Shown here: positions 7,058 through 63,079 of the stretch, in pieces
Position numbering within the stretch: position 1 is the stretch's first letter
Layout: the number at the start of each line of letters is the position of its first letter
Origin: Candidatus Dojkabacteria bacterium
Lineage (GTDB): Bacteria; Patescibacteriota; Dojkabacteria; B142; OLB20
NCBI GenBank assembly: GCA_046753765.1
Contig: JBHHUN010000005.1
Coordinates: 4,430-68,429 of the forward strand
DNA: 64,000 nucleotides
Direction: 5' to 3'
Position numbers and translations under genes: made by a program
The notes under the pieces: model-generated
Databases searched by the model: none
What the model was told of the DNA's origin: nothing
The model's input: only the letters and a program-made list of their open reading frames with translations

Positions 7058-7071
7058 ATTACGCAGATAGC

Positions 7072-7665: not shown

Positions 7666-7759
7666 GGTTGTATTGTAGCGAAAAAAAGGTTTGTAGGTAA
7701 AGGGGAAATAGTGAGAGTGTGCTACAATGGGCTTATATAATACTTATATATAGATCTAC

Positions 7760-8342: not shown

Positions 8343-8383
8343 AGACATGAGGGCCTGATAGTGGTAGGGTAAAATACTAAACC

Positions 8384-14206: not shown

Positions 14207-14283
14207 TGGTGCGCCTAGCAGGACTCGAACCTGCAACCTCATCTTCCGCAAAGATACGCTCTATCCAGTTGAGCTATAGGCGC
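14207..14283 (-). tRNA. tRNA-Arg (anticodon GCG), CCA encoded
   Basis: The reverse complement GCGCCTATAGCTCAACTGGATAGAGCGTATCTTTGCGGAAGATGAGGTTGCAGGTTCGAGTCCTGCTAGGCGCACCA folds as a cloverleaf with anticodon loop TTGCGGA and the A20 Arg identity element. Confidence 0.75.
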
Positions 14284-45350: not shown

Positions 45351-46365
45351 ACAGGAAAAGATTACAGATAAGCATATTTGGGAGGAGTTTATCACTTCAA
45401 GTGGACTCCCTACCTCTTTTTTTCAGTCCTGGAACTGGGGGGAGTTTGAGAAAGAGAGGGGCTCCAAAATCCACAGACTCGGCTTTTACGATGCAGGTGA
45501 TCTGATCGGGATTGGTCTGGCCATCGAAACAGATGCAAAACGTGGACGGTATCTCCATTTCAGGAACGGGCCTGTGATTAACTGGAAAGATGACTTCTCT
45601 GCGCACGAGATTATGGGGCACATTTATAAGTATGGCAAAAAAGAGGGCGTTGATTTCATTCGTATCAGTCCACTTGTTGAGCCTGGAGCCATTGGTCAAT
45701 TCGTGATTAAGGGTTCAAATTACACAGAAAGTCAGATGCACGACGTTGATGCTGAGATCACATGGATGCTCGATCTGACTCAGCCACTTGGGAAAATCCA
45801 GGAGAATATGCGCAAGAATACACGCTACTATATCCGCAAGGCTGAGCGCGATGGTGTTGAAATAACGAGTACAACTGATGTTAAATACCTAAACGATTTC
45901 TGGAAGATCTATCAGGATACGGTAAAAAGGCAAAAGTGGACTGCATATAGCTTCGACTATATCAGAACTGAGTTCGAGAGGTTTAGCAGGGACAACCAGG
46001 CAAAACTGTATCTTGCGAAATATAAGGGGGCGTTTATTGCAGGCGCAATCTTCATCTATCACAACAATCAGGCCTACTACCATCATTCAGGAAGCCTGAC
46101 CAAGTACCGAAAGCTGTCCGCGCCTTACCTGCTGCAGTGGGAGTCGATTAAGGATGCCAAAAAGAGAGGATTAAAGCTTTATAACTTCTTTGGCATTGCC
46201 CGCGACGACAACCCCAACCACCCGTGGCACGGCCTTACCTTTTTTAAGAAGGGGTTCGGAGGGTGTGAACAGAGGTGGATTCATGCAAAGGACCTACCAC
46301 TGAAATTCCGTTACTGGCTCACGAATTTTTATGAGAGGTTGGAGAGGAAGAAGAGGGGTTACTAG
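45343..46365 (+). CDS. FemAB-family peptidyl/aminoacyl transferase (peptidoglycan interpeptide bridge formation type)
   Basis: 340 aa with a GNAT-like duplication pattern typical of FemABX, including FxxWNWGEF. Overlaps the murF-like stop by 8 nt. Confidence 0.55.
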   Translation: MIEQEKITDKHIWEEFITSSGLPTSFFQSWNWGEFEKERGSKIHRLGFYDAGDLIGIGLAIETDAKRGRYLHFRNGPVINWKDDFSAHEIMGHIYKYGKKEGVDFIRISPLVEPGAIGQFVIKGSNYTESQMHDVDAEITWMLDLTQPLGKIQENMRKNTRYYIRKAERDGVEITSTTDVKYLNDFWKIYQDTVKRQKWTAYSFDYIRTEFERFSRDNQAKLYLAKYKGAFIAGAIFIYHNNQAYYHHSGSLTKYRKLSAPYLLQWESIKDAKKRGLKLYNFFGIARDDNPNHPWHGLTFFKKGFGGCEQRWIHAKDLPLKFRYWLTNFYERLERKKRGY

Positions 46366-46384
46366 TATAGCTTGAGCTACAGGG

Positions 46385-46987
46385 TTGCTTTTACATGTTC
46401 CCGTGCAGGCAGCATGGACGTACGGTGATGATTATCCATATCCAAACGGGTCTGGTGTTGATCCCTGGAATATGTATATTAGACAGTGCACTTCTTACTC
46501 CGCTCACAAGGCAGATCAGATAATCGGGAACTTCAATAATCAAATGGAAGGACCAAATGGTACTTCCGGTACGTTTGGGAATGCAAAGAATTGGGATGAA
46601 AATGCAACTTCTATAGGATTCCCCGTGCTAACTTCACCGAAGGTGGGTACGATTACGTCTGTATACCAGAATAAAGAAGGCGCAGGAAACTACGGACACG
46701 TTGCATACATAGAAACCGTGCATACTAATGGGAAGTTTGATCTCTCAGAGTACAATTGGTGGCCTAATTCCCGGTCTTACAATGAAAGGTATAACCGCCA
46801 GAACTCACAGTGGTATACTTTCATTGACTTTGGAGGTGGCTCATGTAGTCCTTCCCCAAATCAGGATTGGATCATTACATCAGACTGTGAAATAACAAGC
46901 AATATTAACTTCGACTTTACAAATTACAAAATAGTTATTCAGAATGGAGCAAAACTTGACATCACAAACGGAGCGAAAATCTACTAA
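46385..46987 (+). CDS. CHAP-domain protein (cysteine/histidine-dependent amidohydrolase/peptidase)
   Basis: Catalytic Cys in RQCTSYSAHKADQ and His in YGHVAYIETV. A short C-terminal beta-repeat tail follows. Confidence 0.65.
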   Translation: MLLHVPVQAAWTYGDDYPYPNGSGVDPWNMYIRQCTSYSAHKADQIIGNFNNQMEGPNGTSGTFGNAKNWDENATSIGFPVLTSPKVGTITSVYQNKEGAGNYGHVAYIETVHTNGKFDLSEYNWWPNSRSYNERYNRQNSQWYTFIDFGGGSCSPSPNQDWIITSDCEITSNINFDFTNYKIVIQNGAKLDITNGAKIY

Positions 46988-47651
46988 GAAGACAATTAAA
47001 GTCCCGGTAATAATAATTGGGGTAGCAATCATCCTTTCCATCAGCGTAGTATTCGTGCTTGCACGAAAGGGGTTTGAGGGCTTAGATCAAACTCCAACTA
47101 CGAGCTCTGTTACTTCAGCCCCTACCTTGACCGAAACCCCTTCATCCACACCGGACAGAGTAGTTATGACTCAATATGATTATTCAGATATATATGCCGA
47201 CTATCACACGGATTCGAAAATTATATTTGAATTTCCCACAAGCGCAGAAATTAATTCCGAAGCAAGGGTACTCAACGTGGCAATAGATCATGTGATTACT
47301 CTCGAAACAGGAGAAGTAGTCTTGCTAGATTTGAATGGGACAGCTTCGAACAAGATTCAAGAGGAGCTAGAATTCAAGATGGATGAGTACTACAGGATAG
47401 ACCCCCAGAATCCTGATGGGCCAATCAAAGTGAATAACAATTCGAACTACCAGGCAGTTGTCACTAATTCAGGTGTCAATAAGTACGGAAGTCGCTACAA
47501 ACAATTCTCAATCGACAAAGACAGTTTAGTAACTATTTTTGAATTTCCTAGAGATGACGATAAAGGCAGTTGGTACATATACCTTAGTATTGATTCCCTG
47601 GAACCCCCCGAAGAGTACCAACTCATATTTGACTCAATTAGAGAAGAATAA
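46944..47651 (+). CDS. TM-anchored exported protein with PT/S-rich linker, unknown function
   Basis: TM helix VIIIGVAIILSISVVFVLA, then a TSSVTSAPTLTETPSSTP linker, then a soluble domain. Confidence 0.4.
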   Translation: MEQNLTSQTERKSTKKTIKVPVIIIGVAIILSISVVFVLARKGFEGLDQTPTTSSVTSAPTLTETPSSTPDRVVMTQYDYSDIYADYHTDSKIIFEFPTSAEINSEARVLNVAIDHVITLETGEVVLLDLNGTASNKIQEELEFKMDEYYRIDPQNPDGPIKVNNNSNYQAVVTNSGVNKYGSRYKQFSIDKDSLVTIFEFPRDDDKGSWYIYLSIDSLEPPEEYQLIFDSIREE

Positions 47652-49231: not shown

Positions 49232-50983
49232 ATGAAGTATCCTATTGGACTTATCACCGCCCTGATTTTTTTCACCGTCTCGGCTGTTGCAGCTCCGGTT
49301 GCAGCACAGAAGGCCACGGTCGAAAGCATCTCCACCGAAGTGACTTTTCACACCGACCTCACAGCATACGTTTCAACCACTCTCAAGCTTAAAAACAGGT
49401 CCGATCAGTATCTCCTTTCAGAGATTGCGTTTACTCTCCCAAGATCACCGCAAAATTTCAAGGCCAGGATAGACGACAGGTCAGTCTCCGCCGATATTAA
49501 AGGAAAAAAGGTTAATCTTAACCTTGGGTCTGGATCTATCGAGCTCAATCAAAAGGGGACGCTCGAGCTTGAGTATCAGTTGAAGGGTCTGGTTGAAGAC
49601 TTCGGAGTGATTAAAAGAATGAGTTGGCCCACAACAAGTTTCGCCCCTAAAAGAGGGGAACTTGGAAAGCTTGTGCAGAAAATCTCTTACCCATCAGAAT
49701 GGGGAGAGCTCACCTACAAATCAGGACAGCTCGAGAGTGAGCCTGGCATAGACGGTTTCACCTCTTTTTCTTCTACCACTGATGAAACGCTCAGTCTCGT
49801 TGCAGGTGGGTATACAAACGCAGAGCTCAGTATGGGTTGGCGGATCACTAATCAATTAGATGAGAGTATACGATTCAGGGTACCAGTTCCCGGAGAAAGT
49901 GTAGGGATGTTTAAGTTGGATAGCTATGAAGGTGCCAAGAGCGGTTTCATGGATGAAGAACAAAACAAGTTCCTGACTCTACATCTTGACTCAAATGTTG
50001 TGGCAGAGGGGAACTTCTCGGGAGTGTTTGGCAAAACAGGGTTTATGTTTAATGGAGAGGGAGATGGGCTTGTGCCCGACGGATTTCAGACAGACTGGCA
50101 ACAACTTGGAATCACAAAAGAAGATGCCGAAGGGATCTACAAAAAAATCTTAGAGAAACTTCACCCCAGTTTGATAAATAAGTTTAAAACGAGAAGCAAT
50201 GTGGCGGGCAGCCTATCAAAAGACGAGCACGACTCCCTCGATTACTCTAACCTGCTTGTTGCAGCGCTGCGTGGAAATGGAATCCAGTCAGAGATAGTTT
50301 TTGGTCTGGTGAACTTTCCTACAGACCAGACATACCATTGGCACTACTGGGTGGTTTATCGCGAAGGTAATCAGTGGAACCAGATAGATCCATTTCTCGA
50401 GGACCTCTCAGGCTTCGACTACTTCACACAGATTGATCAGCTGCGAATTCCCTGGGGTACAGTACCAAAAGACAATTCGACTGACAGCCTCGGCTTTAAT
50501 CATCTTGGGCTCACTAAAGATATCAAGTTTGATCCACCTGTAGTTGAGGGGGCTCAGCCCGACAGTGCAAAAGTCTTTGCATTGCTCGAGCTAACGGGAA
50601 ACGCGTACTCAGGGCAACCTCTCCCCCTGTTGCTTAGGGTAGTAAATGGCAGCAATGTGCCAGTTTCCTTAAGTGATATCTCAATCGAAAATGTGAAAGT
50701 TGCAACAGATGAAATTAACAGCTTCTGGATCATACCTCACACATCACAGCTCATTCAGGTTGATGAAATCAGTGTTAGTGATCCATTTTTCACTGGGGAG
50801 AAAACTGTCTCCGGTAGTATGAAAGTGCAACTGGATGATGAGACAAGGGTTCTGGATATCAGCCTCCCCCTTGATATTCAAGTGAATTATCAGATGCTTA
50901 GTGTGAATCTACTCATCCTTTTCCTTCTCTTAATTCTCGCTTCCGTCTTTGCCCGAAAAAGATTTCTCAATAAGGGGTTCTAA
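49232..50983 (+). CDS. Exported protein with transglutaminase-like core lacking the catalytic Cys (probable pseudo-enzyme), C-terminal TM anchor
   Basis: Signal peptide. DYSNLLVAALRGNGIQSEIVFGL resembles the TGase-core CxxFA...GIPAR motif with Cys replaced by Ser/Asn, followed by HYWVVY...WNQIDP. C-terminal TM LLILFLLLILASVFA. Confidence 0.4.
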   Translation: MKYPIGLITALIFFTVSAVAAPVAAQKATVESISTEVTFHTDLTAYVSTTLKLKNRSDQYLLSEIAFTLPRSPQNFKARIDDRSVSADIKGKKVNLNLGSGSIELNQKGTLELEYQLKGLVEDFGVIKRMSWPTTSFAPKRGELGKLVQKISYPSEWGELTYKSGQLESEPGIDGFTSFSSTTDETLSLVAGGYTNAELSMGWRITNQLDESIRFRVPVPGESVGMFKLDSYEGAKSGFMDEEQNKFLTLHLDSNVVAEGNFSGVFGKTGFMFNGEGDGLVPDGFQTDWQQLGITKEDAEGIYKKILEKLHPSLINKFKTRSNVAGSLSKDEHDSLDYSNLLVAALRGNGIQSEIVFGLVNFPTDQTYHWHYWVVYREGNQWNQIDPFLEDLSGFDYFTQIDQLRIPWGTVPKDNSTDSLGFNHLGLTKDIKFDPPVVEGAQPDSAKVFALLELTGNAYSGQPLPLLLRVVNGSNVPVSLSDISIENVKVATDEINSFWIIPHTSQLIQVDEISVSDPFFTGEKTVSGSMKVQLDDETRVLDISLPLDIQVNYQMLSVNLLILFLLLILASVFARKRFLNKGF

Positions 50984-51039
50984 AAAGTTGAACGTAATTC
51001 TTAAAGTGGCCAAAAACTTTACTTACCGCTGTATTTGTA

Positions 51040-51068
51040 TTGACAGAATTTGTTGTTTGAAACATAAT
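51040..51068 (+). promoter_or_regulatory. Candidate sigma-70 promoter (TTGACA-17-CATAAT) for the 51095 gene
   Basis: Perfect -35 at 51040-45, a 17-nt spacer, and -10 CATAAT at 51063-68, about 27 nt upstream of the ATG. Confidence 0.45.
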
Positions 51069-51094
51069 AGAATTAGTGTTTTTACTGTCCTAAT

Positions 51095-53692
51095 ATGGTA
51101 GGGAAGCCCAAGCAGTACGTAGTAAGTCTGTCACAGATCGATAAAGATGGCTCGAAGTTAGTAGGCGAAAGGGCCTTGTTACTGCGAGAGGTATCCGGCC
51201 ATGGCATTCCCGTTCCCTCCAGTTTTGTAATTACAACAGAAGCTTTCGACGACTTCATTATCGCTAACGACCTTGTTAGTTTTATCTCTGCGCATATCAA
51301 CGAAGTGGACTATACGAGCGAAAAGTCAGTTAGAAAAACTGCCAGCGCAATACAGTCAGCCATCGTTGAGGCAAAGGTGCCGGATCTTATTAAAAGTCCA
51401 CTTGAAAAGGTGTATTCCGGTATAGGAGGTCTGTTTGACGCCTTTGTCACCGTGCGGACATCTCCGGTTTTTCGCGAGCTGGATGAGGTTAACTACCACG
51501 AGCCCTACATAATCAACAATGTTAAGGGCAAGGGACACCTGCTCGACACTGCAAAAGAGCTCTGGGCAAGAATGTTTTCTCCTGAAGCACTGCTGTTCAG
51601 GGCAGCGCTTGGCTATGAGGGATCCATCACACAGGCACTGCTTGTCCAAAAGATGGTACAGGCAGAAGTATCAGGCAAAGTTTTTAGTGTTAACCCCGCG
51701 AATAACGACAAAGATGTCATTGAGGTTCAGGCAATTTTGGGCGTTAATGACCCCCAGGTATCTGCGGATCTGGTCCCCGACAGTTACTTTTACAACAAGC
51801 AGACAGAAGAGATTATTGAGAAAAAGATAGTTGGTCAGGATAACATGGTAGTCCGCAGAGGTCGAAGTCAAAATGGGAGTCCCAACACAAAAGTGGCGAT
51901 ATCTGAAATCTGGCAGAAAAAGCAAAAGATAGATGACCGCAACATAATTAATCTTGGTAGAATTACAAGTTTACTTGAACAGCTGTATAAGTCGGAGATA
52001 GAGATCGATTTTGCATTTGAGGCGGGAAGGCTCCAAGTGATCGAGATTACACCGATTGAAAAGGCAAGGACTGCCCGGAAGCTCAACATAGTAGAAGACC
52101 AGCTTCGACCGATCGTTGAGAAGTACCCGTCTATGGGGCAGAAGGTAAAACCTAGAAAACGAAATGTCAAAACAGCAGAAACTCCTGCAAAGGAGTCTGA
52201 TACGCCCAAGCAAAAAGAGAAAACGATGGATGATTATGTGAAAGAGGTTGAGAAAGCTCAGCAGGATGCACCGCTGCATCAGGAAAAACCAGATGGTGAT
52301 GTTAAATACGTCGGCGAAAAGATTGTGGTTGTTGTGAAGCCAAAGGATGAGCTTGACCAGATACTTGAAGGAACTGGCTGGGGAAAAGGGTTAAGCTTCG
52401 GTCTTGCACATTTTATATTGCAGGATGTTGACTGGCTTGGCCTTACAGGAGACGAGATTTTAGTAATTGAACGGTTGGACAAAAAACACTTGCAAGCAGT
52501 TAATAAATCAAAGGGCGTTGTCTTGAAGAGCGTGTTGAAAGAAGAAGAGTTACAGCTTATTAAAGTCCCAGTTCTCCACTCGGTGGACAAAGCGATGAAC
52601 GTGCTGCGCGAGAATGAGGTTATAACACTGGATCCTGAGGCTGGAGCTATCTACCTTGGTGCCGGGAAAGAACTTTCGGAGCAGCCTGAATCAGGTATAG
52701 ATCAGTCGGTTGCGACCGAAGGTGAAGGGGCGAAGGCAGAGAAAACGGCGCTGTTCCCCCGCCCGGTGATCCAGGAGGTAGTAGCGGAGCAGAAAAACGT
52801 CATAGAGACAACAGGTAAATTCTGGCAGATTTACAGTCCAGATGACCCCAAAGTTGAGCTACTCCATAGCAACGGAATGTTTATTGATCTCTCAAGATTT
52901 TACAAATCAGCGGGCTTGAGCCCCGAATACCTCCTGAGTGAACCGGATCAGCGCAGGGGATTTATGAAGAGTGTGATAACAGTTCTGGTACCCATGCTTC
53001 AGCAGCTCGAAAACAGGCAGGCAATACTGCAGGCAAGTGATATTCCACTCGAGGAGTTAAAACATCTAAAAGGCAGTGACCGCATGAACTACGATCATCG
53101 CTTTCTGTCAGGTGCTGGCAAGTTTGCAGCTGATCCAAATCTACTAAACATGGAGCTTGAGATACTGAGTATCCTCCGTAACCGCGAGTCTCTTAGGAAT
53201 TTATGGTTTTCAATACCAAGAGTTAATACAGCAAGTGAGCTCTCCGAAACAAAGAAAATAGTTTCATCATATGGATTTAGAAGATCTTCAACCTTTAAAT
53301 TGCTGGCGACAGTTTCAACTTCTCTTTCGGCGGTGTCAATTAAATCTATCGTTGAGAATGATGTCGATGGAGTTATTTTCGACTATGACAGTATAATGGA
53401 GGATCTGCTTGGACGTGGTGAGTACGAAATCGATGATAACCTAACGAAATTTTTCACCTGGCTGATCGAGACAGTAAATACAAACAGGGCAAAACCGTAT
53501 CTGTTGAATCACAAATACAGAATAGAAAAAGCTGCCCTAAGAGGTATGCTTGAAAAAGGGCTGAACAATTTTATCTTGACAAGGGATCAACTTTATCCTC
53601 ATAAACTGCTAATATCGAGTCTGGAAGTAAAAAGGATAGGAGTTAAAAAGAAACGTGGCAGAAAGAAGAAAAGGATCGATTACGGGTTTTAA
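51095..53692 (+). CDS. PEP synthase/PPDK N-terminal (ATP-grasp nucleotide-binding) domain protein with degenerate PEP-utilizer phospho-His domain and long unique C-terminus
   Basis: N-terminus VVSLSQIDKDGSKLVGERALLLREVSGHGIPVPSSFVITTEAF ... ALLVQKMVQAEVSGKVFSVNP ... IEIDFAFEAGRLQVIEITPI follows the PPDK_N pattern. A later segment (GVVLKSV ... IKVPVLHSVDKAMNVLRENEVITLDPEAGAIYLG) resembles the PEP-utilizers mobile domain but lacks the TSHAA His motif. Confidence 0.55.
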   Translation: MVGKPKQYVVSLSQIDKDGSKLVGERALLLREVSGHGIPVPSSFVITTEAFDDFIIANDLVSFISAHINEVDYTSEKSVRKTASAIQSAIVEAKVPDLIKSPLEKVYSGIGGLFDAFVTVRTSPVFRELDEVNYHEPYIINNVKGKGHLLDTAKELWARMFSPEALLFRAALGYEGSITQALLVQKMVQAEVSGKVFSVNPANNDKDVIEVQAILGVNDPQVSADLVPDSYFYNKQTEEIIEKKIVGQDNMVVRRGRSQNGSPNTKVAISEIWQKKQKIDDRNIINLGRITSLLEQLYKSEIEIDFAFEAGRLQVIEITPIEKARTARKLNIVEDQLRPIVEKYPSMGQKVKPRKRNVKTAETPAKESDTPKQKEKTMDDYVKEVEKAQQDAPLHQEKPDGDVKYVGEKIVVVVKPKDELDQILEGTGWGKGLSFGLAHFILQDVDWLGLTGDEILVIERLDKKHLQAVNKSKGVVLKSVLKEEELQLIKVPVLHSVDKAMNVLRENEVITLDPEAGAIYLGAGKELSEQPESGIDQSVATEGEGAKAEKTALFPRPVIQEVVAEQKNVIETTGKFWQIYSPDDPKVELLHSNGMFIDLSRFYKSAGLSPEYLLSEPDQRRGFMKSVITVLVPMLQQLENRQAILQASDIPLEELKHLKGSDRMNYDHRFLSGAGKFAADPNLLNMELEILSILRNRESLRNLWFSIPRVNTASELSETKKIVSSYGFRRSSTFKLLATVSTSLSAVSIKSIVENDVDGVIFDYDSIMEDLLGRGEYEIDDNLTKFFTWLIETVNTNRAKPYLLNHKYRIEKAALRGMLEKGLNNFILTRDQLYPHKLLISSLEVKRIGVKKKRGRKKKRIDYGF

Positions 53693-53743
53693 TTTAAGTT
53701 AGAAAGAAGAATTCTGTATAATCCTTACATAACTGATAAAAGA

Positions 53744-56700
53744 ATGATGCGACTTAAAACTCTGGCCGTATACTTGCTGAGTGCCTTGATTGTGTTGGGC
53801 ACTAACGTTATCCTTCTTCCGGTAAATAATGTCTCTGCACAATCTGAACCGGATGGTGCCGAAGAAGTTTTAGATCGTGCCGATGAGTACGATCTCGACC
53901 ATCTGTTTGTCAAATACAAAAATAGCGATGAACCTCAGTTGGTAGAAGTTGATCCTGCAAGCAATGGTCAGATAACGGTATTTTCGGAGAGTAATAAGTA
54001 TGATGGCGACATCGTCGAAAAGCAAGAGCGGCTCGCCGATAAATTCAATCAGCTTCTCGATAACCCGAGAGTTGAATACGTTCAACCTCAATACATTTAT
54101 TCAATTGGAGCCTGGAGCCGAAGCGGGACACAGGATACACCAGACGATTTTGATACGACATCACCGTATAACCATTGGTACTACGACGCATCTAATGTTC
54201 GCGAGATGTGGCAGGATCAGGACTGTCAGGGGGGCGGTGCAGGTTGTGGTGGAGATTCAAATGCTACTGTTGCTGTAATTGATACTGGCTTGGCATACGA
54301 ATCCAGAACTTCGGCCTGGGGAGACAGCTTTGCCCCAAATGATGACATGTTCGGAGGCAGTAATATCAATCTTTATACCAATACTGCTGAAATCAATGGC
54401 GATGCGGGCACCAACTGTTTTGATGAGATAGACGATGATGGTAATGGTTTTGTCGATGATTGCTATGGTTTTAATTCAGCAGAATACATCTACTGTTCCT
54501 TCACTACATCCTGCACAACAACCCAGGAGGCAGAGATGGGTCATCCAAATGATGATGGTGGACACGGAACATACGTAACTGGTCTAATAGCTTCGTTGGT
54601 GGATAACAACCTGGGGAGTGTCTCTCCTGCACATAATGTGACGATAATGCCGATCAAAGCTTCGTTTTTCCACTCCGGCTCGTTTGGTTCTATGGAGCTG
54701 TGGTGGGCGATTGACTATGCAGTTAATCAAGGGGCAGATGTTATTAATCTGAGCCTTGCTGGCCCTACCTTTGATCAGGGGTTGTCCGATAAGCTCCAGT
54801 GGGCAAAAGATAATGGGGTGACAGTTGTGGCAGCAACTGGAAATACTAACTCCAGCGTTTACTATCCAGCAGCTTTTGACTCTGTTATTGCTGTAGGAGC
54901 GGTAAGGCCAAATGGAACCCGAGCTTTTTATTCCAACTATGGGACTGATATTGATATCACTGCCTATGTCGGGAATGGAGGGGGGATAGGGGATACTGTC
55001 TATCAACGGAGTTATACCTGTTTCTTCCTTAATCCGAACTGCTATTCAACAAACGCGTATACCACATTTTCAAATGGTTATGGAATCGGTACCTCTTATG
55101 CGTCACCACAAGTTGCAGCGATGGTCGCGTTAATAATTTCTGCCAAGCCATCGATCACCAGGCAGGGAATAGATAACCACTTATTTGGCGATGCGACAGA
55201 TCTTGGTACAGTTGGCTGGGATAATCAGACAGGGTGGGGAGTAATCGATTTTGAAAAGACGTACAAAAATGTTTCCAGCAATGGAGCACCCACTTTGGCA
55301 ATCCTTGAGCCAAATGGAGTAGGTGATACTGGAGATACGTCTTTTAATATTACGTGGACAGACAGTGACCCTGACGATGATGCGGTGATCAATTTCTACA
55401 GGGATAATGATGGCGCCGGATTTGATGGCGTATTGATAAGCGGATGTGATAACATTGCCCAGTCAGCTGCTTCGGATACATGCAAATTCGACACAAGACC
55501 GCTGCCAGCAGATGATTACTACATCTACGGTTGCATAACTGACTATGTTAATCCACTCGACTGTAGCTACGGCGGAGGACCTATCACAATATCTCACACC
55601 CCCATCAGGGAGTTTGGTTTAGCTGTTGTCAGTACCGATTGGGTGCCAATATCGTTTCAGAAGACATACAGTGATCCGCCAATAGTATTCGCAGAGGTAT
55701 CAAGCGAGAATGGAACCAACAAGATATTTGCAGACATTAGAAACGTTACTTCCGCGGGCTTCGAAGTCAGGATAGAGGAGAACACAATGTCGGGATGGAA
55801 TGGGATACACGGAAACGAGGATATAAGCTGGTACGCAGTTCAAAGCAATACAGGAGCAGAAAAAGTTGGTGAATCCGTGATAAATACTGACTGGGTGAGT
55901 ATTGACTTTCTGACATCCTTTGCCAGCATTCCAGAGCTATTCGTCATGGTGCAGTCAGAGAATGGTGGCAATATTGTTTATGCTGATGTTAGAAATGTGA
56001 GTACAACAGGATTCGATGTCAGACTCGAAGAGCCAGTCGGTTGGAACGGGCTCCATTCAGATGAATCGGTTGGGTGGATTGCGTTTGAAACAAATCCCGT
56101 AACAGGCGGGCAGGAGGGCAAAGCCACAACGGATCAGGATTGGAGTACAGTATCTTTTACTCCAGCTTTTTCCGAGCCACCAGTGTTAATAGTCTCTGTT
56201 GATACGGAAAATGAGGGGAATTACGTAAATGCGGATATTCGTAACCTGGATGCAAACGGATTTGAGTTTATGATGGAGGAAGATATCCTAATCCAGAATG
56301 GTATCCATGGAGATGAGACCGTGAGCTGGGCTGCGTTTCCACTGAGTACAATCAATTCACAATCCGGAACCGTATCTATAAATAGTAACTGGACAGAGAT
56401 ATATTTTCCACAATCATTTGAGTCAAAACCGAAAGTTTTTGTTGAGATAAATACAGAAAACGGACAAGACACAGCTGAGGTAGACATAAAAGATGTAATG
56501 CCGTATTCATTTACGGCCAGGATAGAAGAAGATAAGCTTGCGGGTTGGGGAGCTGGCGGACACACTACAGAAACCATCACATGGTACGCAATTTTAAATC
56601 CCGGTTCGGGTGAACAGGTTGGAAATAGCAGCGTAGACCACAATTGGAAGACCGTAACCTTTTCCTCACCGTTTACTTCTACTCCAAAAGTCTTTGCGGA

Positions 56701-57100
56701 TGTGCAAACAGAAAACGGTGGTCAGACTGCAGCAGTCGATATGAAAAATATAACGACGACCGCATTCGAGGTCAAAGTAGAAGAGGATCCAAGAGCCGGA
56801 TATGATGGAAACCATGCGGTCGAAACTGTCTCATGGCTCGCGTTTGAGACACCCTCAATGGGAGAGACAGGTACAGTAGCTGTAGATCAGGACTGGACAG
56901 CGGTGGATCTGAGCAGCTTTGGTTTCAGCGGTGTGCCTAAATTACTGGCTGACATTCAGACCGAGAACGGAACCCACACTGTTCAGGTTGATATTCGAAA
57001 TCTCTCCAGTACCGGGTTTGATGTAAGAATGGAAGAGGAACCCAGGATATGGGATGGACTTCATGCTCTGGAAACGGTTTCTTGGCTGGCTTGGGAATAG
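53744..57100 (+). CDS. Secreted subtilisin-like serine protease (S8) with N-terminal propeptide-like region, Ig/FN3-like spacer and six C-terminal ~82-aa tandem repeats (possibly H-type-lectin-like)
   Basis: Signal peptide. S8 triad contexts TVAVIDTGLAYE (Asp), HGTYVTGLIAS (His), GTSYASPQVAAMVALI (Ser), and a calcium-loop-like EIDDDGNGFVDD. Six repeats of the pattern DxxW-x-V-x-F-(P/S)-x-F-x-P-x-V(F/L)...(Q/N)TENGG...VD(I/M)(R/K)N(V/I/L)(T/S)xxGF(E/D)V(R/K)(I/V/L/M)EE...G-x-H-x-(D/E)-x-(V/I)-(S/T/G)-W-(Y/L/I/A)-A-(V/F/I/W). Confidence 0.75.
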   Translation: MMRLKTLAVYLLSALIVLGTNVILLPVNNVSAQSEPDGAEEVLDRADEYDLDHLFVKYKNSDEPQLVEVDPASNGQITVFSESNKYDGDIVEKQERLADKFNQLLDNPRVEYVQPQYIYSIGAWSRSGTQDTPDDFDTTSPYNHWYYDASNVREMWQDQDCQGGGAGCGGDSNATVAVIDTGLAYESRTSAWGDSFAPNDDMFGGSNINLYTNTAEINGDAGTNCFDEIDDDGNGFVDDCYGFNSAEYIYCSFTTSCTTTQEAEMGHPNDDGGHGTYVTGLIASLVDNNLGSVSPAHNVTIMPIKASFFHSGSFGSMELWWAIDYAVNQGADVINLSLAGPTFDQGLSDKLQWAKDNGVTVVAATGNTNSSVYYPAAFDSVIAVGAVRPNGTRAFYSNYGTDIDITAYVGNGGGIGDTVYQRSYTCFFLNPNCYSTNAYTTFSNGYGIGTSYASPQVAAMVALIISAKPSITRQGIDNHLFGDATDLGTVGWDNQTGWGVIDFEKTYKNVSSNGAPTLAILEPNGVGDTGDTSFNITWTDSDPDDDAVINFYRDNDGAGFDGVLISGCDNIAQSAASDTCKFDTRPLPADDYYIYGCITDYVNPLDCSYGGGPITISHTPIREFGLAVVSTDWVPISFQKTYSDPPIVFAEVSSENGTNKIFADIRNVTSAGFEVRIEENTMSGWNGIHGNEDISWYAVQSNTGAEKVGESVINTDWVSIDFLTSFASIPELFVMVQSENGGNIVYADVRNVSTTGFDVRLEEPVGWNGLHSDESVGWIAFETNPVTGGQEGKATTDQDWSTVSFTPAFSEPPVLIVSVDTENEGNYVNADIRNLDANGFEFMMEEDILIQNGIHGDETVSWAAFPLSTINSQSGTVSINSNWTEIYFPQSFESKPKVFVEINTENGQDTAEVDIKDVMPYSFTARIEEDKLAGWGAGGHTTETITWYAILNPGSGEQVGNSSVDHNWKTVTFSSPFTSTPKVFADVQTENGGQTAAVDMKNITTTAFEVKVEEDPRAGYDGNHAVETVSWLAFETPSMGETGTVAVDQDWTAVDLSSFGFSGVPKLLADIQTENGTHTVQVDIRNLSSTGFDVRMEEEPRIWDGLHALETVSWLAWE
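55625..57097 (+). repeat. Six in-frame tandem ~82-aa domain repeats within the first S8 protein
   Basis: Repeats begin at VSTDWVPISF, INTDWVSIDF, TDQDWSTVSF, INSNWTEIYF, VDHNWKTVTF, VDQDWTAVDL and each ends with VSW/ITW + A. Confidence 0.7.
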
Positions 57101-57116
57101 TTAATACTATAAACAC

Positions 57117-60100
57117 ATGTTGTTTGTACGAAGACATTTACCTCTAATTGTATTTTCATTATTCTGGATTTTTGCAGCCGGAGCGCTGTTTATGTTGTCG
57201 GATTGGAACGTAACAGGGCAGGTTCTGGTAGGAAATCAGGCTAAAGCCAGAGAGATTGTCAATCGCAGCAGGGATTTTGACCTGAACAATGTGGTTGTTG
57301 TCTATAAAGACGAGCCGGATGAGGTAAGGCTAATCTCTGTTTCCGATACCGTCGAGACACGATCTTCAGGAGAGAGAACCGAGATAGCTGACCTCTACAT
57401 CACTGGTGAGATTGATCCCGACCTTTTTGAAATACAACAGAAGAAATCCAGGCTCGAACAAAAGATATACGATCTGCTCGAGGACGAGAGCGTGCTCCAC
57501 GTTCAGCCTCAATACATCTACCACACGAATTCATGGGGACGCTCTGGCAGTCAGGATACCCCTGATGACTTTGATACGATTTCGCCAACTACTGGTGAGC
57601 ACTGGTACTACGAGATGGCCCACCTTCGTGAAATGTGGCAGGACCAGGATTGTTTTGGTAGCGGGCCAAATTGCGGAGGAAATACCGGAGGCGTAGTTGC
57701 TGTAATAGACACAGGGCTGGCATATGAGACAAGAAAATCAGCATGGCAGGATAATTTTGCAAAGAACGATGATATGTTCAACGGAACCAGTATCACTCTC
57801 TATACCAACGCGGGAGAGATACCTAATAACCTTATTGACGATGATGGTAACGGTTACCGAGATGATTACAACGGCTTCAACGCCGACGATTACGTTTTTT
57901 GTCTCCCCCCCGAACCTCAGGATCCACCGTGTACGACCGCAGAGTGGGCCGAGGAGGGGCATGCTTACGACGATGACGGGCACGGAACATACACAACCAG
58001 CATGATAGCTTCATTGGTAGATAACACTTTTGGTAGTGTATCCCCGGGGTTCAATCTCACGATAATGCCAATTAAGGCCTCTGATTTTCACTCACCCAGT
58101 TTTGGTACGGCTGAGCTTGTTGCCGCTATTGACTACGCCATGAACAACGGTGCCGATGTAATAAATATGAGTCTTGGCGGGCCGACTGATGATCCTGTAT
58201 TGAGCGCCAAAATCGACGAGGCAGTTGCAGCAGGCGTATTTGTTGTCGCTGCAAGTGGTAATGGGGGAGGTGCTGTAGGGTATCCAGCAGCAAACACAGG
58301 CACATTTGCAGTTGGCGCCGTTGCTGCCGATGATGCCAGGGCTTGTTACTCCAGTTTTGGAGCAGAACTTGATATGGTGGCCTATGTTGGTGACGGTGAT
58401 GGTTCGTGCCCTATCTCTGTTATAGGAGAGGGGACGGCGGCTTATCAAAGAACTTACTCCTGTTTTTTCACTTCGCCCGACTGTAATGATCTAGGTGGCA
58501 GTGAAGACTACGAGACGTTTTCGACAAGCTATAGTCTTGGTACATCATTTGCCGCTCCGCAGGTATCTGCGATGGCAGGAATCCTAAGAGCGATTGGCCC
58601 AAGCACGCCAGTTTCAGAGCTTGAATCTATCCTTATAGGTAATGCAACCGACCTAGGGCCCGCAGGGTTTGATACTGCTACCGGCTATGGTGTTTTGGAT
58701 TGGGAGGCGACATTTGCAGCTGCTATTGCCAGTGAAGCACCGACCTTATCGGTCATAGAGCCAAATGGGGTCGGCGATGGTGCAGATGCATCATTTAACA
58801 TCACCTGGACTGATACAGACTCTGATAACGACGCAGCAATCAACTTCTATTACGATCTTGACTCCTCAGGGGAGGATGGAACCTTAATAGCAGACTGCTC
58901 TAACATTAGTGAGGACGATGAAACAGACAGTTGTACGTGGGATATGCGGTTTATGCCCGAAGACGACTATTACATCTATGGATGCATTGCAGACTTCTTT
59001 AACCCTGTAGATTGCAATAACTACGGCGCTGGTCCAATAACTTTAACTCACGCTGTTAAACGCGACTGGAACACACATACTGTAACTACAAGCTGGAGAA
59101 CTATCAGTTTTACAACCAGTTTTGACACTGTTCCAATAGTAAGTGCACAGATTACATCAGAATGGGGAAGGGATAGAATCTATCTGGATGTAAAAGATGT
59201 AACTATAAGTGGGTTTAGTACACGAATACGAGAAAACACTGTTACAGGATGGAATGGTGGTCATGGAAGTGAGGAGTTGAGCTGGTACGCTGTTCAAAGC
59301 ACCAGTACGGGAGAAATTGTAGGTCAGATAGATCTCACTGGCCCGGGATGGACTAGTGTAACTTTTCCACAGGCATTCGGGTCAACGCCTCATGTGTTTG
59401 CTAACCTTCAAACCCAGAACGATACAGCGATCGCCTATGTTGATCTGAGAAACATCACAACCACGGGTTTTGAAGCCAGGATAGAAGAGCCGACGGGGCT
59501 TGCAAATGACCACGCAACAGAAACGGTTGGCTGGGTGGCATTCAGTGATCACCCCGATGCTGAAGAGGGCAGTGTTATAGCGAATCATGTGCGCAAGACT
59601 GTGACATATGCTACTTCGTTTACTGCACCACCTGTGCTGCTAGCGCAGATTCAGACCAACAACGACGGAAGAAGATCAACGGTCGATGTAGGCGGAACAA
59701 AGGACTACCGCAGCAGGCTTTGGGTAGGAGAGGATACGAAAGTGCATGATGGAATTCATGATAACGAAACAATAAGCTGGGCGGCGTTCCCTTATACACC
59801 GCCTAACGATGTAGGAGTTGCTCAGTCCCTCACTGACGACTGGACAGAATACCCATTCGACCAGCCCTTTGAGGACACGCCAAAGATGTTCGCTGATATT
59901 AACTCTGAAAATGGGACGGACACAGTAGATGTTGACCTGAGAAAAATTACAAGGCGTAGCTTTCAAGCCAGGATTGAGGAGGATCCGAAGGCGGGATGGA
60001 ACAACAAACACATGGACGAGGATATAACCTGGTATGCTTTTTATATAAGACCCACAGGTAGCAAAAACGGTAACCTAACCACAAATCAAAACTGGACTAA

Positions 60101-60548
60101 CTCTGGAATAGGTGGTGGCGGATTTGGTTCGACACCGATGGTGTTTGCCGAGATTCAAACAGATAATGGAGGTGATACGGCAGCAGTAGATGTTAAGGCT
60201 ATCACCCCGACAGGCATGAAGCTCAGAGTAGAAGAGGATAAAGTAGCTGGCCATAACGGCAATCACACAAATGAAACAATCTCATGGTGGGGTTTCACAT
60301 CTGCACCCTTCGGTCAAGCGGGTCTGGATTCAGTTGATCACAACTGGAAAACGGTAACATTTCCGATTGCGTTTAGTACCGTCCCCAAATTGCTTTTTGA
60401 AGTAAACAGTGAAAATGGCGGGCAAACAGCTATGGTAGATGTACGCAACATCACTACTGCTGATTTTGAAGTGAGAGTGGAGGAAGAGCCAAAAAGATAC
60501 GATGGGAGCCATGCTTTCGAAGATGTGGTCTGGCTCGCCTGGGAGTAA
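57117..60548 (+). CDS. Paralogous secreted S8 subtilisin-like protease with the same architecture (six C-terminal ~82-aa repeats)
   Basis: Only 16 bp after the first copy. VVAVIDTGLAYE, HGTYTTSMIAS, GTSFAAPQVSAMAGIL and DDDGNGYRDD. Six repeats ending at VVWLAWE, the same C-terminal end as copy 1 (VSWLAWE). Confidence 0.75.
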   Translation: MLFVRRHLPLIVFSLFWIFAAGALFMLSDWNVTGQVLVGNQAKAREIVNRSRDFDLNNVVVVYKDEPDEVRLISVSDTVETRSSGERTEIADLYITGEIDPDLFEIQQKKSRLEQKIYDLLEDESVLHVQPQYIYHTNSWGRSGSQDTPDDFDTISPTTGEHWYYEMAHLREMWQDQDCFGSGPNCGGNTGGVVAVIDTGLAYETRKSAWQDNFAKNDDMFNGTSITLYTNAGEIPNNLIDDDGNGYRDDYNGFNADDYVFCLPPEPQDPPCTTAEWAEEGHAYDDDGHGTYTTSMIASLVDNTFGSVSPGFNLTIMPIKASDFHSPSFGTAELVAAIDYAMNNGADVINMSLGGPTDDPVLSAKIDEAVAAGVFVVAASGNGGGAVGYPAANTGTFAVGAVAADDARACYSSFGAELDMVAYVGDGDGSCPISVIGEGTAAYQRTYSCFFTSPDCNDLGGSEDYETFSTSYSLGTSFAAPQVSAMAGILRAIGPSTPVSELESILIGNATDLGPAGFDTATGYGVLDWEATFAAAIASEAPTLSVIEPNGVGDGADASFNITWTDTDSDNDAAINFYYDLDSSGEDGTLIADCSNISEDDETDSCTWDMRFMPEDDYYIYGCIADFFNPVDCNNYGAGPITLTHAVKRDWNTHTVTTSWRTISFTTSFDTVPIVSAQITSEWGRDRIYLDVKDVTISGFSTRIRENTVTGWNGGHGSEELSWYAVQSTSTGEIVGQIDLTGPGWTSVTFPQAFGSTPHVFANLQTQNDTAIAYVDLRNITTTGFEARIEEPTGLANDHATETVGWVAFSDHPDAEEGSVIANHVRKTVTYATSFTAPPVLLAQIQTNNDGRRSTVDVGGTKDYRSRLWVGEDTKVHDGIHDNETISWAAFPYTPPNDVGVAQSLTDDWTEYPFDQPFEDTPKMFADINSENGTDTVDVDLRKITRRSFQARIEEDPKAGWNNKHMDEDITWYAFYIRPTGSKNGNLTTNQNWTNSGIGGGGFGSTPMVFAEIQTDNGGDTAAVDVKAITPTGMKLRVEEDKVAGHNGNHTNETISWWGFTSAPFGQAGLDSVDHNWKTVTFPIAFSTVPKLLFEVNSENGGQTAMVDVRNITTADFEVRVEEEPKRYDGSHAFEDVVWLAWE
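59070..60545 (+). repeat. Six in-frame tandem ~82-aa domain repeats within the second S8 protein
   Basis: Repeats begin at NTHTVTTSWRTISF, LTGPGWTSVTF, ANHVRKTVTY, LTDDWTEYPF, TNQNWTNSGIGGGGFGSTPMVF, VDHNWKTVTF. Confidence 0.65.
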
Positions 60549-60623
60549 TGCAATATTGCTGTAGAAACAACGATGTAAGATATAATTAACTCAGACACTG
60601 ATAAAACGTATTAGTGAATAACA

Positions 60624-62183
60624 ATGACCATACTGCGGAAAAACAAAACATTTCTAATCTTGATCCTGTTGATCTGGGGAGCACTGCTGTTAGTGGGTGT
60701 TCAGGCGGGGGCTCCTGACCCTGAGCCGGCTGGCACAGTGGAAGACGTAAACTCAGGTGAAGTTACTCCACCAGAGACATTGGGAGTAATTGCAACCTCA
60801 AGTCCAACCCCGACACTACCTCTAGATAATGAAGTATCTGAAGAAATCGAAGATACCAGTGCTCCGAGCCCGAAACAAAGCACAAAACCAAAATCTCCCG
60901 GAGCTACGAAATCACATCAGGAGAACGATTCGGGAGAAATCGACACACTAAATTTGGGAGATCTAGCGTCTGGCAGCTTCTTGTTCTCCGTAGACGAAGA
61001 TTTCTCGGCCTACGGCTTTCAGTGGGAAAGCGGATCGTTCACCTTCTCCTGGGATGGGATTAACTACCAGCCACCGACTTTGTTAGGCGAGCACGTAAGA
61101 GACAACTATGCTGGTCAGAAGGCAACTAATCTGTATTTTGGTGCCCCCGATTCTAAGAAGCTATATATAAAAACTGGTCGCGTAAGCGACCTCAAGCTCA
61201 GTTTAATAACACCAACAGAAAGCGATGATGGATTTGGTATTGCGGCAGGTGTAGCTGACTATATGGGGGCAACCTATACAGAGCTCCCAATAATCTCGCG
61301 AGCGCAGTGGGGGGCTGATGAGTCAAAAGCGTTGTGGGATCCATCTTATGGTCCGATTCAGAGAATCATTGTCCATCATACAGCCGGATCAAACAGCGCG
61401 AGCAACTGGGATGCTGTTGTGAGATCAATTTTTAACTACCACGCTGTAACCCTTGACTGGGGGGACATTGGCTATAACTACCTTATTGCCCCTAACGGAA
61501 ACATCTATGAAGGACGTAAAGGAGGGGAGGGAGCGACAGCCGCCCATACTTACCTGCATAACTATGGAAGTATAGGAATTGCCATGATAGGAACCTACTC
61601 CAGTGTACCGCCGAGCAGTGCCGCAATGGATTCGCTAAAAAGACTGATCGCAGAAAAATCTGCGGTTCATAATATCGACACAGTGACCTGGCAGTCAAAC
61701 TACTATGGTCACCGTGACTGGAACTCAACCACATGTCCTGGTACCACTTTATATGGAATTCTTCCGAATAAGGCCAACTGGATTAATTCCCACCAGGACA
61801 GTCAGTATCCTGAGGTCTTTGCAGCCCGTGCAGCCGCGGAACTGGCGTATGATGCTGCTAACCCTTTCCCAACACCACAAAAAACTGATCTCGTGATAAC
61901 GTTTGATCGACCATTCACAGTAAGTGAAGCTGAGATACAAGCAATGATCCCGCCATATAGCGGCATAAAAGTAAGTGGCGTATTCGGGAATAAGGTCCAT
62001 CTAACACTGATTAAATACTACGATGGGGGCTCACAGTTTATGGACTTCAGGTCCAAACTTCTACGCACTCTTTTCAGCCTTGATGGTGAGGTGAAGGATA
62101 TTGAGTATGTCGGCGACTTCTTCATCTTTGACGAAAATCTGGGTACACCGACTCCCACGCCATCCCCATCACCGACACCATAG
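60624..62183 (+). CDS. N-acetylmuramoyl-L-alanine amidase (Amidase_2/PGRP domain), TM-anchored with PT-rich linker and C-terminal domain of unknown function
   Basis: PGRP-like domain SRAQWGADESKALWDPSYGPIQRIIVHHTAGSN ... GDIGYNYLIAPNGNIYEGR ... HRDWNSTTCPG. N-terminal TM helix, a PT/S linker, and a C-terminal PTPTPSPSPTP tail. Confidence 0.75.
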   Translation: MTILRKNKTFLILILLIWGALLLVGVQAGAPDPEPAGTVEDVNSGEVTPPETLGVIATSSPTPTLPLDNEVSEEIEDTSAPSPKQSTKPKSPGATKSHQENDSGEIDTLNLGDLASGSFLFSVDEDFSAYGFQWESGSFTFSWDGINYQPPTLLGEHVRDNYAGQKATNLYFGAPDSKKLYIKTGRVSDLKLSLITPTESDDGFGIAAGVADYMGATYTELPIISRAQWGADESKALWDPSYGPIQRIIVHHTAGSNSASNWDAVVRSIFNYHAVTLDWGDIGYNYLIAPNGNIYEGRKGGEGATAAHTYLHNYGSIGIAMIGTYSSVPPSSAAMDSLKRLIAEKSAVHNIDTVTWQSNYYGHRDWNSTTCPGTTLYGILPNKANWINSHQDSQYPEVFAARAAAELAYDAANPFPTPQKTDLVITFDRPFTVSEAEIQAMIPPYSGIKVSGVFGNKVHLTLIKYYDGGSQFMDFRSKLLRTLFSLDGEVKDIEYVGDFFIFDENLGTPTPTPSPSPTP

Positions 62184-62212
62184 CAGCGCAAGCGTTTTAG
62201 GAGGGTCATGAA

Positions 62213-63079
62213 TTACTCAGGGATAGGGGATTCTATCTTGTTTGGAACCCCGTAATCCCAGAACCGGCCGTTTTCGTTGAACCCCTTCTCTTCGAAGTTA
62301 CGGAAATAGACTATCTGATAATCTTCGTTAACCTTTACCTGCACTATTGTCTCAACAAGTTGGTTGAAGTCATTAACTTTTTCGCCTTCGGCAGTCAGGA
62401 CACGAACCCTCTGTGTGCCGCGCTGCTCAAATGACGACTCAATAGTTTGTTGTGACTGGATCAGATCGACGACATCAACAATGGCAGTCTGTGCTGATGG
62501 TGTTATCGTTGCTTTTTCCCATGGACTCTCTGAGTTAGATGCGTTGTAGAAGAAGGCAGTGTTTCCAATTCTGTACTCTGCAGGCGGAGGATCAAACTTC
62601 ATCCCATCTGAACATACCTGTGCAAGAAAGTAAGACGTAAAACTTTTATTTGGAGAGGTGTGCTCCGAGTAGGATCCATAGCATTCATCTTTAGTAAGAT
62701 CAGAGAAGTCTCCAGTGGCTTTGAAGTGCTTAGTTTTTCCGAGCTCGATCTCCAGTGAGGTTAAAAAATCACGCGATTCGCAATCCTGGAAACACTTCTG
62801 CAATCTCGTAAGCTCTTCTTCGGGTGTTTCGGTAATCTCCGGCGTGGGCGTTGGTGAATCCGTTGGGATTGGCGTGACCACTGGTCCTGGTGTGGATCCT
62901 TGTTGCCCCATAAGGGCAATCACTCCGCACAGTAAGAGAAGGTTTAATACAGCTGAAAATATCAATATTGATTTAAGGTAGCTAGCATCGTTGAAGATTG
63001 ATTTAAGGGTTAATCCTGATTTTGGGCCAATCAGTTCTTCTTGAACGACTTCACTGGGATTCTGGGAGTCAGACGACAT
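62213..63079 (-). CDS. TM-anchored exported protein with PT-rich linker, unknown function
   Basis: 288 aa; TM ILIFSAVLNLLLLCGVIALM, linker PVVTPIPTDSPTPTPEITETPEEE, then a Cys-containing soluble domain. Confidence 0.4.
   Translation of the reverse strand: MSSDSQNPSEVVQEELIGPKSGLTLKSIFNDASYLKSILIFSAVLNLLLLCGVIALMGQQGSTPGPVVTPIPTDSPTPTPEITETPEEELTRLQKCFQDCESRDFLTSLEIELGKTKHFKATGDFSDLTKDECYGSYSEHTSPNKSFTSYFLAQVCSDGMKFDPPPAEYRIGNTAFFYNASNSESPWEKATITPSAQTAIVDVVDLIQSQQTIESSFEQRGTQRVRVLTAEGEKVNDFNQLVETIVQVKVNEDYQIVYFRNFEEKGFNENGRFWDYGVPNKIESPIPE

Follow-up and report, generated by a model that had tools for sequence, protein, structure and literature searches.

What do two bacterial subtilases do with long C-terminal arrays of lectin-like repeats, and in what unit do such repeats work? 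The question is raised by a 64,000-nucleotide stretch of contig JBHHUN010000005.1 (assembly GCA_046753765.1; hereafter the window) from a Candidatus Dojkabacteria bacterium, in which two adjacent subtilase genes, pA and pB, each encode six such repeats. A preliminary description of this DNA, made from its letters and open reading frames (ORFs), had tentatively likened the repeats to H-type lectins and suggested an autonomous binding module on a protease. Here we place the repeats in the H_lectin family, identify a trio of repeats as their working unit, and propose that two trios probably target each protease to a polymer of the cell envelope.

Twelve repeats and their fold

A hidden Markov model (HMM) trained on ten motif-anchored repeats found both held-out copies, A3 at E 6e-23 and the most diverged copy, B3, at E 3e-14. 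A six-frame scan of the whole window returned exactly 12 copies, six per protein, and no others, confirming the count first given. Start-to-start spacing is 84, 83, 83, 85 and 83 aa in pA and 85, 81, 83, 84 and 84 aa in pB, so that the strict period described as ~82 aa is measured at 81-85 aa. Identity between repeats is 22-63%, and six residues of the consensus 'G..W...V.F...F...P.VFA.IQTENG.....VD.RN.T..GF..R.EE....G..G.H..ETVSW.A' (P, D, E, H, E and W) do not vary in any of the 12 copies. The motif originally read from the sequence matches this consensus except at the histidine, where the spacing in the repeats is H-x-x-E, not H-x-E. The span originally assigned to the repeats, 55625-60545, does contain them, together with the non-repeat protease half of pB (57117-59063), the arrays proper occupying 55610-57091 and 59064-60539. 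Tandem Repeats Finder (TRF) detected no DNA-level tandem repeat within the arrays, which are therefore old, diverged domains and not an assembly artefact; this result and the recovery of the held-out copies also agree with the earlier view that the arrays are not low-complexity sequence.

Assignment to a family was possible with the Pfam H_lectin profile (PF09458), which matches pA at 97.7 bits (4.3e-28) and pB at 80.6 bits (9.3e-23) with a gathering score of 24, and which is matched by 10/12 repeats scanned singly (E <= 0.1; best 2.2e-7). Aligned as a profile to the Helix pomatia agglutinin (HPA) using hhalign, the 12 repeats match the beta2-beta5 core over 44 columns (probability 74%, E 2.8e-5). 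The closest relative of the arrays, P0001 from candidate division WS6 bacterium OLB20 (521 aa, 47% identity), consists of the array alone and is named 'H-type lectin domain protein' at NCBI. The Pfam profile Gp53-like_C (PF21882) reaches 14.7 bits in pB, below its gathering score of 24.9, and only 3/12 repeats match it at E <= 0.1; its threshold is passed by some relatives, for example P0033 at 57 bits.

The fold was predicted with AlphaFold2 (AF2), which models the six repeats of pA (residues 617-1118) with six strands per repeat at a mean predicted local distance difference test (pLDDT) score of 87.3 and a predicted template modelling (pTM) score of 0.69. The modelled six-stranded antiparallel beta-sandwich is superimposable on HPA, discoidin and SLL-2. 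Searched against the PDB with Foldseek, it gives high-probability local matches (0.96-1.0) only to H-type lectins and their viral relatives. The lectins are SLL-2 (3wmp), HPA (2ccv, 2ce6, 2cgy), the H. aspersa agglutinin HAA (4q56) and discoidin II, with template modelling (TM) scores of 0.54-0.64 normalised to the lectin. The viral relatives include the R2 pyocin fibre foot (6cl6, 6ct8; root-mean-square deviation (rmsd) 2.3-2.8 A over 83 columns) and AP22 gp53 (4mtm; rmsd 2.5-2.7 A over 83-85 columns), both at probability 0.98-1.0, and likewise the phi297 tailspike. Among predicted viral structures in BFVD, the matches are phage 'H-type lectin domain', tail-fibre and receptor-binding proteins. 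The profile scan and the structural models together establish the repeats as members of the H_lectin family with a predicted H-type-lectin fold. The suggested lectin signature is thus borne out at the level of both family and fold: the Pfam scan found a lectin profile above its gathering score in both proteins, the fold search led to H-type lectins and to related proteins of phages and pyocins, and neither of the outcomes named beforehand as counter-evidence, a missing lectin profile match or an unrelated fold, occurred.

The trio as the working unit

A single-repeat profile, searched against 1.84 billion representatives, identified 4,838 proteins at E <= 1e-3, giving ~4,800 homologous cluster representatives (50% identity) in public data. 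Of the first 31 homologues, all that appear complete contain either 3 or 6 repeats. In the top 150 of the 4,838 representatives, which are mutually < 50% identical, the number of matched stretches is a multiple of three in 133/150 (binomial p ~4e-45), comprising 3 (11 proteins), 6 (93), 9 (27), 12 (1) and 18 (1) stretches. When a more sensitive HMM was applied to 176 diverse members of the family, 157/176 obeyed the same rule of three, the exceptions being N-truncated fragments or proteins with a repeat-sized gap. Insertions respect the same boundaries. Those of at least 40 aa fall between repeats 3 and 4 in 28 of the six-repeat proteins (n=94) and at none of the junctions 1/2, 2/3, 4/5 and 5/6, and in nine-repeat proteins (n=29) they occur only between repeats 3 and 4 (12) and between repeats 6 and 7 (10).

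An AF2 model of the second trio of pA (residues 868-1118, window 56345-57097), based on 27 aligned trios, has a pLDDT of 95.2 and a pTM of 0.92, and the trio is therefore predicted to form a single rigid body; the hexad value of 0.69 is as expected for two such bodies on a hinge. A predicted viral protein in BFVD matches the whole trio (E 4.6e-12, TMq 0.80, 278 columns). The only near-full-length PDB matches are the C-terminal domain of PCSK9 (TMq 0.31-0.36, ~262 columns, rmsd 9-11 A, probability < 0.5) and the APCbeta domains of apicomplexan perforin-like proteins, all of them weak. These are single-chain pseudo-threefold beta assemblies, and we regard the resemblance as an architectural analogy only.

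Because four independent lines, namely repeat counts, insertion tolerance, structure prediction and the whole-trio viral model, agree, the working unit is, as far as sequences and models can establish it, the trio of repeats and not the single repeat. Of the 'autonomous beta-rich binding module' initially suggested, the beta-rich part stands, with six strands per repeat in the AF2 models; the single repeat is probably not autonomous, the unit being the trio. Each trio is probably a covalent pseudo-trimer resembling the homotrimeric H-type lectins, with two per protease and a three-fold geometry that we infer from the pTM values, the predicted secondary structure and the alignment.

Of the best cross-protein repeat matches, 78/96 lie at the same trio position. 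A deep orthology of positions a, b and c was rejected: position-specific HMMs from distant or intermediate subfamilies, applied to the window-type repeats, gave 8/33 and 4/33 agreements, which is the level of chance and indicates that differentiation within the trio is lineage-specific. Two large relatives extend the range of array sizes. P0032 (3695 aa) has 22-23 repeats detected in pairs with regular 192-aa gaps between them, which suggests either trios whose third member has diverged past detection or an interleaved extra domain. P0040 (2267 aa) has 18 repeats and clusters with, among others, WP_083254587.1, a GDSL-type esterase/lipase from Desulfoplanes formicivorans.

Carrier enzymes, candidate binding site and rival explanations

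The two enzymes that carry the arrays align colinearly from end to end, with 47% identity. Both have a hydrophobic N-terminus, a pro-region, a Peptidase_S8 domain, a ~110-aa linker domain and the six H-type-lectin-fold repeats, in this order, the array reaching the last residues of the proteins (...VSWLAWE). By inspection, the N-terminus of pA, MMRLKTLAVYLLSALIVLGTNVILLPVNNVSA followed by QS, resembles a classical signal peptide ending VSA before QS, and that of pB resembles either a signal peptide or an anchor. The Pfam matches, a complete catalytic triad in the order D-H-S and the oxyanion Asn identify both as subtilases (Peptidase_S8, MEROPS S8), with D180 (VIDTG), H274 (HGTY), N367 and S451 (GTSYASP) in pA and D198, H289, N382 and S477 in pB. 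Within the S8 domain of pA, a 21-bp unit (54433-54472; 1.9 copies, 84% match) encodes an Asp/Gly-rich insertion, 'DDDGNGFVDD', that resembles a calcium-binding loop. The linker domain, with the motif 'APTL..LEPNGVGD...FNITWTD.D.D.DA.INFY...DDYYIYGC', has no Pfam match and only sub-threshold PDB sequence matches, to immunoglobulin V domains, and may be an Ig-like sandwich; P0033 has an fn3 domain at the linker position.

As judged from its distribution, the array is an interchangeable module. In P0001 and P0002 it stands by itself, and elsewhere it accompanies S8, M12 and M10 peptidases, GSDH, a GDSL esterase, ThuA/BPL_N-like proteins, and PKD, Kelch, beta-helix, LamG and other domains. The S8 architecture with six H_lectin repeats recurs in at least eight other cluster representatives, and S8 invariably precedes the array in pA, pB and eight relatives. 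The protease half, whose named relatives are from Dojkabacteria, Woesebacteria and Patescibacteria, is equally independent of the array, because its relatives carry other modules. S8 relatives from the Candidate Phyla Radiation (CPR) have FG-GAP/VCBS, DUF5648, dockerin, Flg_new or BNR domains instead, and the only related locus among GTDB species genomes, L001 in the Candidatus Dojkabacteria metagenome-assembled genome (MAG) contig JAFGDO010000032.1, encodes an orthologous subtilase (5989-8676; 41% identity over pA residues 3-513) without linker and H_lectin array. This subtilase has at its C-terminus a ~46-aa repeat in roughly seven copies, 'FNPG.GDRLYQAVRGLDG.SILTRYTTDG.NWS.W..NGST.G.I.M', which matches no Pfam family above threshold and looks beta-propeller-like. 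The WS6 origin of P0001, the L001 locus and the named relatives of the protease half all fit a Dojkabacteria (WS6)-like CPR member as the most likely source of the window. The promiscuity of the array across enzymes fits the original idea of a binding module on a protease.

A secreted N-acetylmuramoyl-L-alanine amidase (Amidase_2) encoded directly after pB appears to be part of the same system. Conserved synteny and gene fusion in relatives establish, at the level of gene content, a functional link between this amidase and the proteases. Two other genomes keep the Amidase_2 neighbour: it adjoins the protease in L001 (32% identity) and lies on an ENA contig (sample ERZ27297709) whose gene order equals that of window positions 49232-63079: a transglutaminase-like gene, PPDK_N, S8-lectin (P0035), S8-lectin (P0034), Amidase_2 and a minus-strand gene of ~285 aa. 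P0036 (1497 aa; L002:6001-10494) and P0037 (1316 aa) are natural fusions in which Amidase_2 precedes S8 and six H_lectin repeats on one chain; the amidase catalytic domain is 41% identical to that of the window (E 5e-36). The P0036 gene in L002 lies beside glycosyltransferase genes. The tandem arrangement of the two proteases is thus conserved, but the identities to P0035 and P0034, 46-52% all round, leave the orthology of the individual members ambiguous and gave no date for the pA/pB duplication.

If the trios bind a ligand, a candidate site should be recognisable in their conserved residues. In HPA, N-acetylgalactosamine (GalNAc) is reportedly contacted by Gly24, Asp26, Arg63 and Tyr89, together with His84 of the neighbouring protomer, a list attributed to Sanchez et al. 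2006. Mapping of the repeats by hhalign onto the HPA sequence, verified against PDB 2cgy, leaves HPA residues 1-32 (with Gly24 and Asp26, and almost all of loop L1) without a counterpart, places Arg63 on a variable repeat column and does not align residues 81-101, the His84/Tyr89 segment. The ligand-binding distal loops of this fold are L1 (G10-L31), L3 (Q53-V64) and L5 (T82-S90) in HPA (PMC6363177). We mapped conservation over 1,102 repeats from the 176 proteins onto the DSSP assignment of the AF2 trio using this loop definition. Four residues are near-universal: 96% of the repeats have a Pro at the start of strand 3, 91% a Glu at the end of strand 5, 96% a His three positions ahead of strand 6 and 99% a Glu at the start of strand 6. 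Three of the four (Glu/His/Glu; in pA, for example, Glu929, His940 and Glu943) bracket L5, and a T-x-N-G in L3 is conserved at 54-67%. The distal loops are thus the conserved part here, whereas they are the variable part in phage receptor-binding proteins and eukaryotic lectins, which suggests either a common ligand, perhaps metal-mediated, or a role in packing. We consider the Glu/His/Glu cluster a putative binding site and sugar binding by the trios plausible. The Asp of 'VD.RN' in beta4 (for example pA residue 914) is present in 12/12 window repeats and the closest relatives, and the position is Arg in 80% of the family repeats, a subfamily-wide charge reversal.

Based on these observations, the explanation that we favour, with reasonable though far from complete confidence, is that active, exported subtilisin-type proteases are targeted to a cell-envelope polymer by lectin-fold pseudo-trimer feet. 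The six C-terminal beta-sandwich domains (~500 residues) would form two rigid single-chain pseudo-trimers of three domains apiece, either of them the covalent equivalent of the HPA, discoidin or SLL-2 homotrimer or of the R-pyocin/AP22 fibre-tip foot. Ligand contact would be made at the interfaces via the distal loops L1, L3 and L5, around which the Glu/His/Glu and T-x-N-G residues lie. The two feet would anchor the protease bivalently to a cell-surface polymer, most probably a cell-wall glycan, where it would work alongside the adjacent MurNAc-L-Ala amidase. Here, we infer ligand binding, the carbohydrate nature of the ligand and the target cell, be it self or host. A broader version, which we offer as a speculation with the balance against it, is that the trio, marked by its near-invariant Glu/His/Glu and TxNG loop residues, is a distinct and very widespread bacterial surface-recognition module (~4,800 clusters) for one common cell-envelope ligand, possibly metal-aided like the R-pyocin foot, which in CPR episymbionts such as the present one would deliver protease and amidase onto a wall, possibly that of the host. 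If true, lytic enzymes would be aimed by a recognition device of phage fibre tips, taken over in the form of a covalent pseudo-trimer.

Several results weigh against the targeting explanation. No Foldseek match to a solved H-type lectin was obtained at E <= 1e-3, and the repeat profile, run with hmmsearch on the full set of PDB sequences, returned no H-type lectin at E <= 1, the only matches of the 12-repeat profile being chance ones such as alpha-crystallin (E >= 0.065). By the hhalign mapping and the residue list given above, the GalNAc contacts of HPA are not conserved in the repeats; position-specific repeat types are not common to subfamilies, given the 8/33 and 4/33 agreements; and the conservation of the loop residues could reflect packing of the trio and not ligand contact.

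An unlikely alternative, and the one that survives best, is that the trios are protein- or peptide-binding modules and not lectins. The pilin CofB's H-type lectin domain does bind the N-terminal peptide of CofJ in an interface pocket, and not GalNAc (PMC6048534), the canonical GalNAc residues are not conserved in our repeats, and the partner enzymes are mostly peptidases. However, most characterised members of the fold, including HPA, discoidin, SLL-2, the R-pyocin foot and phage receptor-binding proteins, bind saccharides by their distal loops (PMC6363177), and the module is found on enzymes with very different substrates, including GSDH, the GDSL esterase and the amidase. The near-universal residues of the putative site, extending over > 1,000 repeats, also fit one shared, abundant ligand better than a multitude of specific protein partners.

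It is improbable that the array serves the protease in a structural capacity, whether by aiding its folding or stability or as a rigid stalk, in the manner of the kexin P-domain or the C-terminal domain of PCSK9. Such a role would accord with the constant position of the array behind S8 and with PCSK9 and APCbeta being the only near-full-length PDB matches of the trio, but the PCSK9 matches are weak (TM < 0.5 and probability < 0.5) and trios also occur by themselves and on many non-protease partners. Furthermore, the Dojkabacteria orthologue has a different C-terminal module and related S8 enzymes have many others.

It is very improbable that the repeats are canonical H-type lectins that recognise GalNAc as HPA does, through a separate site in each domain, even with the Pfam match and the fold matches to HPA, SLL-2 and discoidin in favour of this reading. 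The absent counterparts of Gly24 and Asp26, the variable Arg63 column and the unalignable His84/Tyr89 region mean that HPA-type GalNAc recognition is not supported; in addition, no solved H-type lectin is matched at sequence level, the family has its own near-invariant Glu/His/Glu set, and the unit is the trio. That the feature is unreal, arising from compositional or chance periodicity, recent DNA duplication or misassembly, is practically negligible, with no supporting point found and with the held-out repeats, the lack of a DNA-level repeat, the thousands of homologues and the confident AF2 models against it.

Genomic context and known systems

The features of the locus are collected in Table 1. 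Cell-wall genes lie upstream of the proteases at window positions 43554-47651, and FemAB genes are near the protease in L001 too. The PPDK_N protein has a long Lys/Glu-rich middle and a C-terminal half without assignment, PPDK_N being its only recognised domain. Apart from two tRNA genes, an Rfam scan of the window found no other RNA family at gathering score.

Table 1. Positions of the subtilase-lectin genes, their domains and other features in the window
Feature	Position	Strand	Basis or remark
Two tRNA genes	13457-13543, 14210-14283	minus	Rfam scan
Mur ligase	43554-45350		upstream of proteases
FemAB-family peptidyltransferase	45343-46365		upstream of proteases
CHAP-domain protein	46385-46987		upstream of proteases
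865-aa protein, N-terminal PPDK_N (ATP-grasp-like)	51095-53692		also upstream of protease pair in syntenic contig
pA, secreted S8 subtilase, 1118 aa	53744..57100	+	ORF; Pfam Peptidase_S8 and H_lectin
pA Peptidase_S8 catalytic domain, aa 172-499	54257..55240	+	Pfam PF00082, 1.4e-37
pA linker domain, aa ~512-620	55277..55603	+	conserved in pB
pA trio I (A1 55610-55837, A2 55862-56083, A3 56111-56335)	55610..56335	+	HMM envelopes
pA trio II (A4 56360-56590, A5 56615-56842, A6 56864-57091)	56360..57091	+	HMM envelopes; modelled trio
pB, tandem paralogue of pA, 1143 aa	57117..60548	+	ORF; Pfam Peptidase_S8 and H_lectin
pB Peptidase_S8 catalytic domain, aa 191-525	57687..58691	+	Pfam PF00082, 1.6e-32
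pB linker domain	58728-59057	+	counterpart of pA linker
pB trio I (B1 59064-59291, B2 59319-59540, B3 59562-59786)	59064..59786	+	HMM envelopes
pB trio II (B4 59811-60038, B5 60063-60293, B6 60315-60539)	59811..60539	+	HMM envelopes
Secreted N-acetylmuramoyl-L-alanine amidase (Amidase_2)	60624..62183	+	Pfam, 7.9e-20; directly downstream of pB

The domain family is already catalogued and named by automated annotation, and in this respect the advance is incremental. The searchable literature yielded no description of the rule of three, of a single-chain pseudo-trimer reading or of a Glu/His/Glu signature replacing the GalNAc residues, and searches for bacterial, CPR, tandem or pseudo-trimeric H-type lectin arrays together with PF09458 gave nothing relevant beyond CofB and the R-pyocin foot. 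The family indicates that bacteria build a three-fold lectin body from one polypeptide, in multiples of three, on many secreted enzymes. For the thousands of proteins annotated as 'H-type lectin domain', this provides a simple rule, to count trios and not domains. For lectin engineering, a compact scaffold on a single chain, with three sites able to diverge independently of one another, would also be attractive, and the proposed targeting offers a testable idea of the way in which CPR bacteria with reduced genomes direct proteases and cell-wall amidases to a surface.

H-type lectins, small sugar-binding homotrimers known from snails, slime moulds and corals, serve as probes of cancer glycans. 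Homotrimeric assembly, with binding sites at protomer interfaces, is common to the characterised lectins, the CofB domain, and the feet of pyocins and phages (PMC6048534, PMC6363177). With the eukaryotic representatives (HPA, HAA, the C-terminal domain of discoidin I/II and the octocoral lectin SLL-2; PF09458) the repeats share the family, a six-stranded beta-sandwich of ~70-100 aa, the core of strands 2-5 ('V.F...F...PxV...', 'N.T..GF') and, by prediction, the three-fold assembly. However, unlike these homotrimers, pA and pB would place three domains on one chain, twice over and on an enzyme, and their repeats have an L1 of ~4 residues where the lectins have ~22, do not keep the GalNAc contacts, and have their own Glu/His/Glu and TxNG residues.

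The R-pyocin fibre foot, AP22 gp53 and the C-termini of phage tailspikes (PF21882) are the lowest-rmsd matches (2.3-2.8 A over ~83 residues, 20-22% identity) and have a similarly short L1 and a trimeric arrangement, the latter predicted for our proteins. They form the distal surface-recognition tip of their fibres, a role paralleled by the one proposed for the repeats. The R-pyocin foot has an acidic distal cavity at the trimer interface that holds a divalent cation (PMC6363177), a likeness to the conserved acidic and His loop residues of the repeats. Whereas the R-pyocin and AP22 feet are homotrimers at the end of a fibre, the trios are predicted to be single-chain pseudo-trimers on a soluble enzyme.

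Among bacterial proteins, the type IVb minor pilins CofB and TcpB also have a domain of the H-type-lectin fold, which works only as a trimer and uses an interface pocket. CofB differs in binding a peptide instead of GalNAc (PMC6048534). It is, moreover, a homotrimer at the pilus tip, and no sequence similarity between CofB and the repeats was detected. In PCSK9, a subtilase is followed by three beta-sandwich modules with pseudo-threefold symmetry, which form its C-terminal Cys/His-rich domain. This order of a subtilisin-like protease and a single-chain three-module pseudo-trimer is analogous to the architecture predicted for pA and pB, but with a weak structural match and no sequence similarity it is an analogy and not evidence of homology. 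Finally, the arrays resemble the carbohydrate-binding (CBM), SLH, dockerin and FG-GAP modules of secreted bacterial hydrolases in being interchangeable C-terminal modules with a likely targeting role, while differing from them in fold and in that the obligate unit of the pA and pB arrays appears to be three domains.

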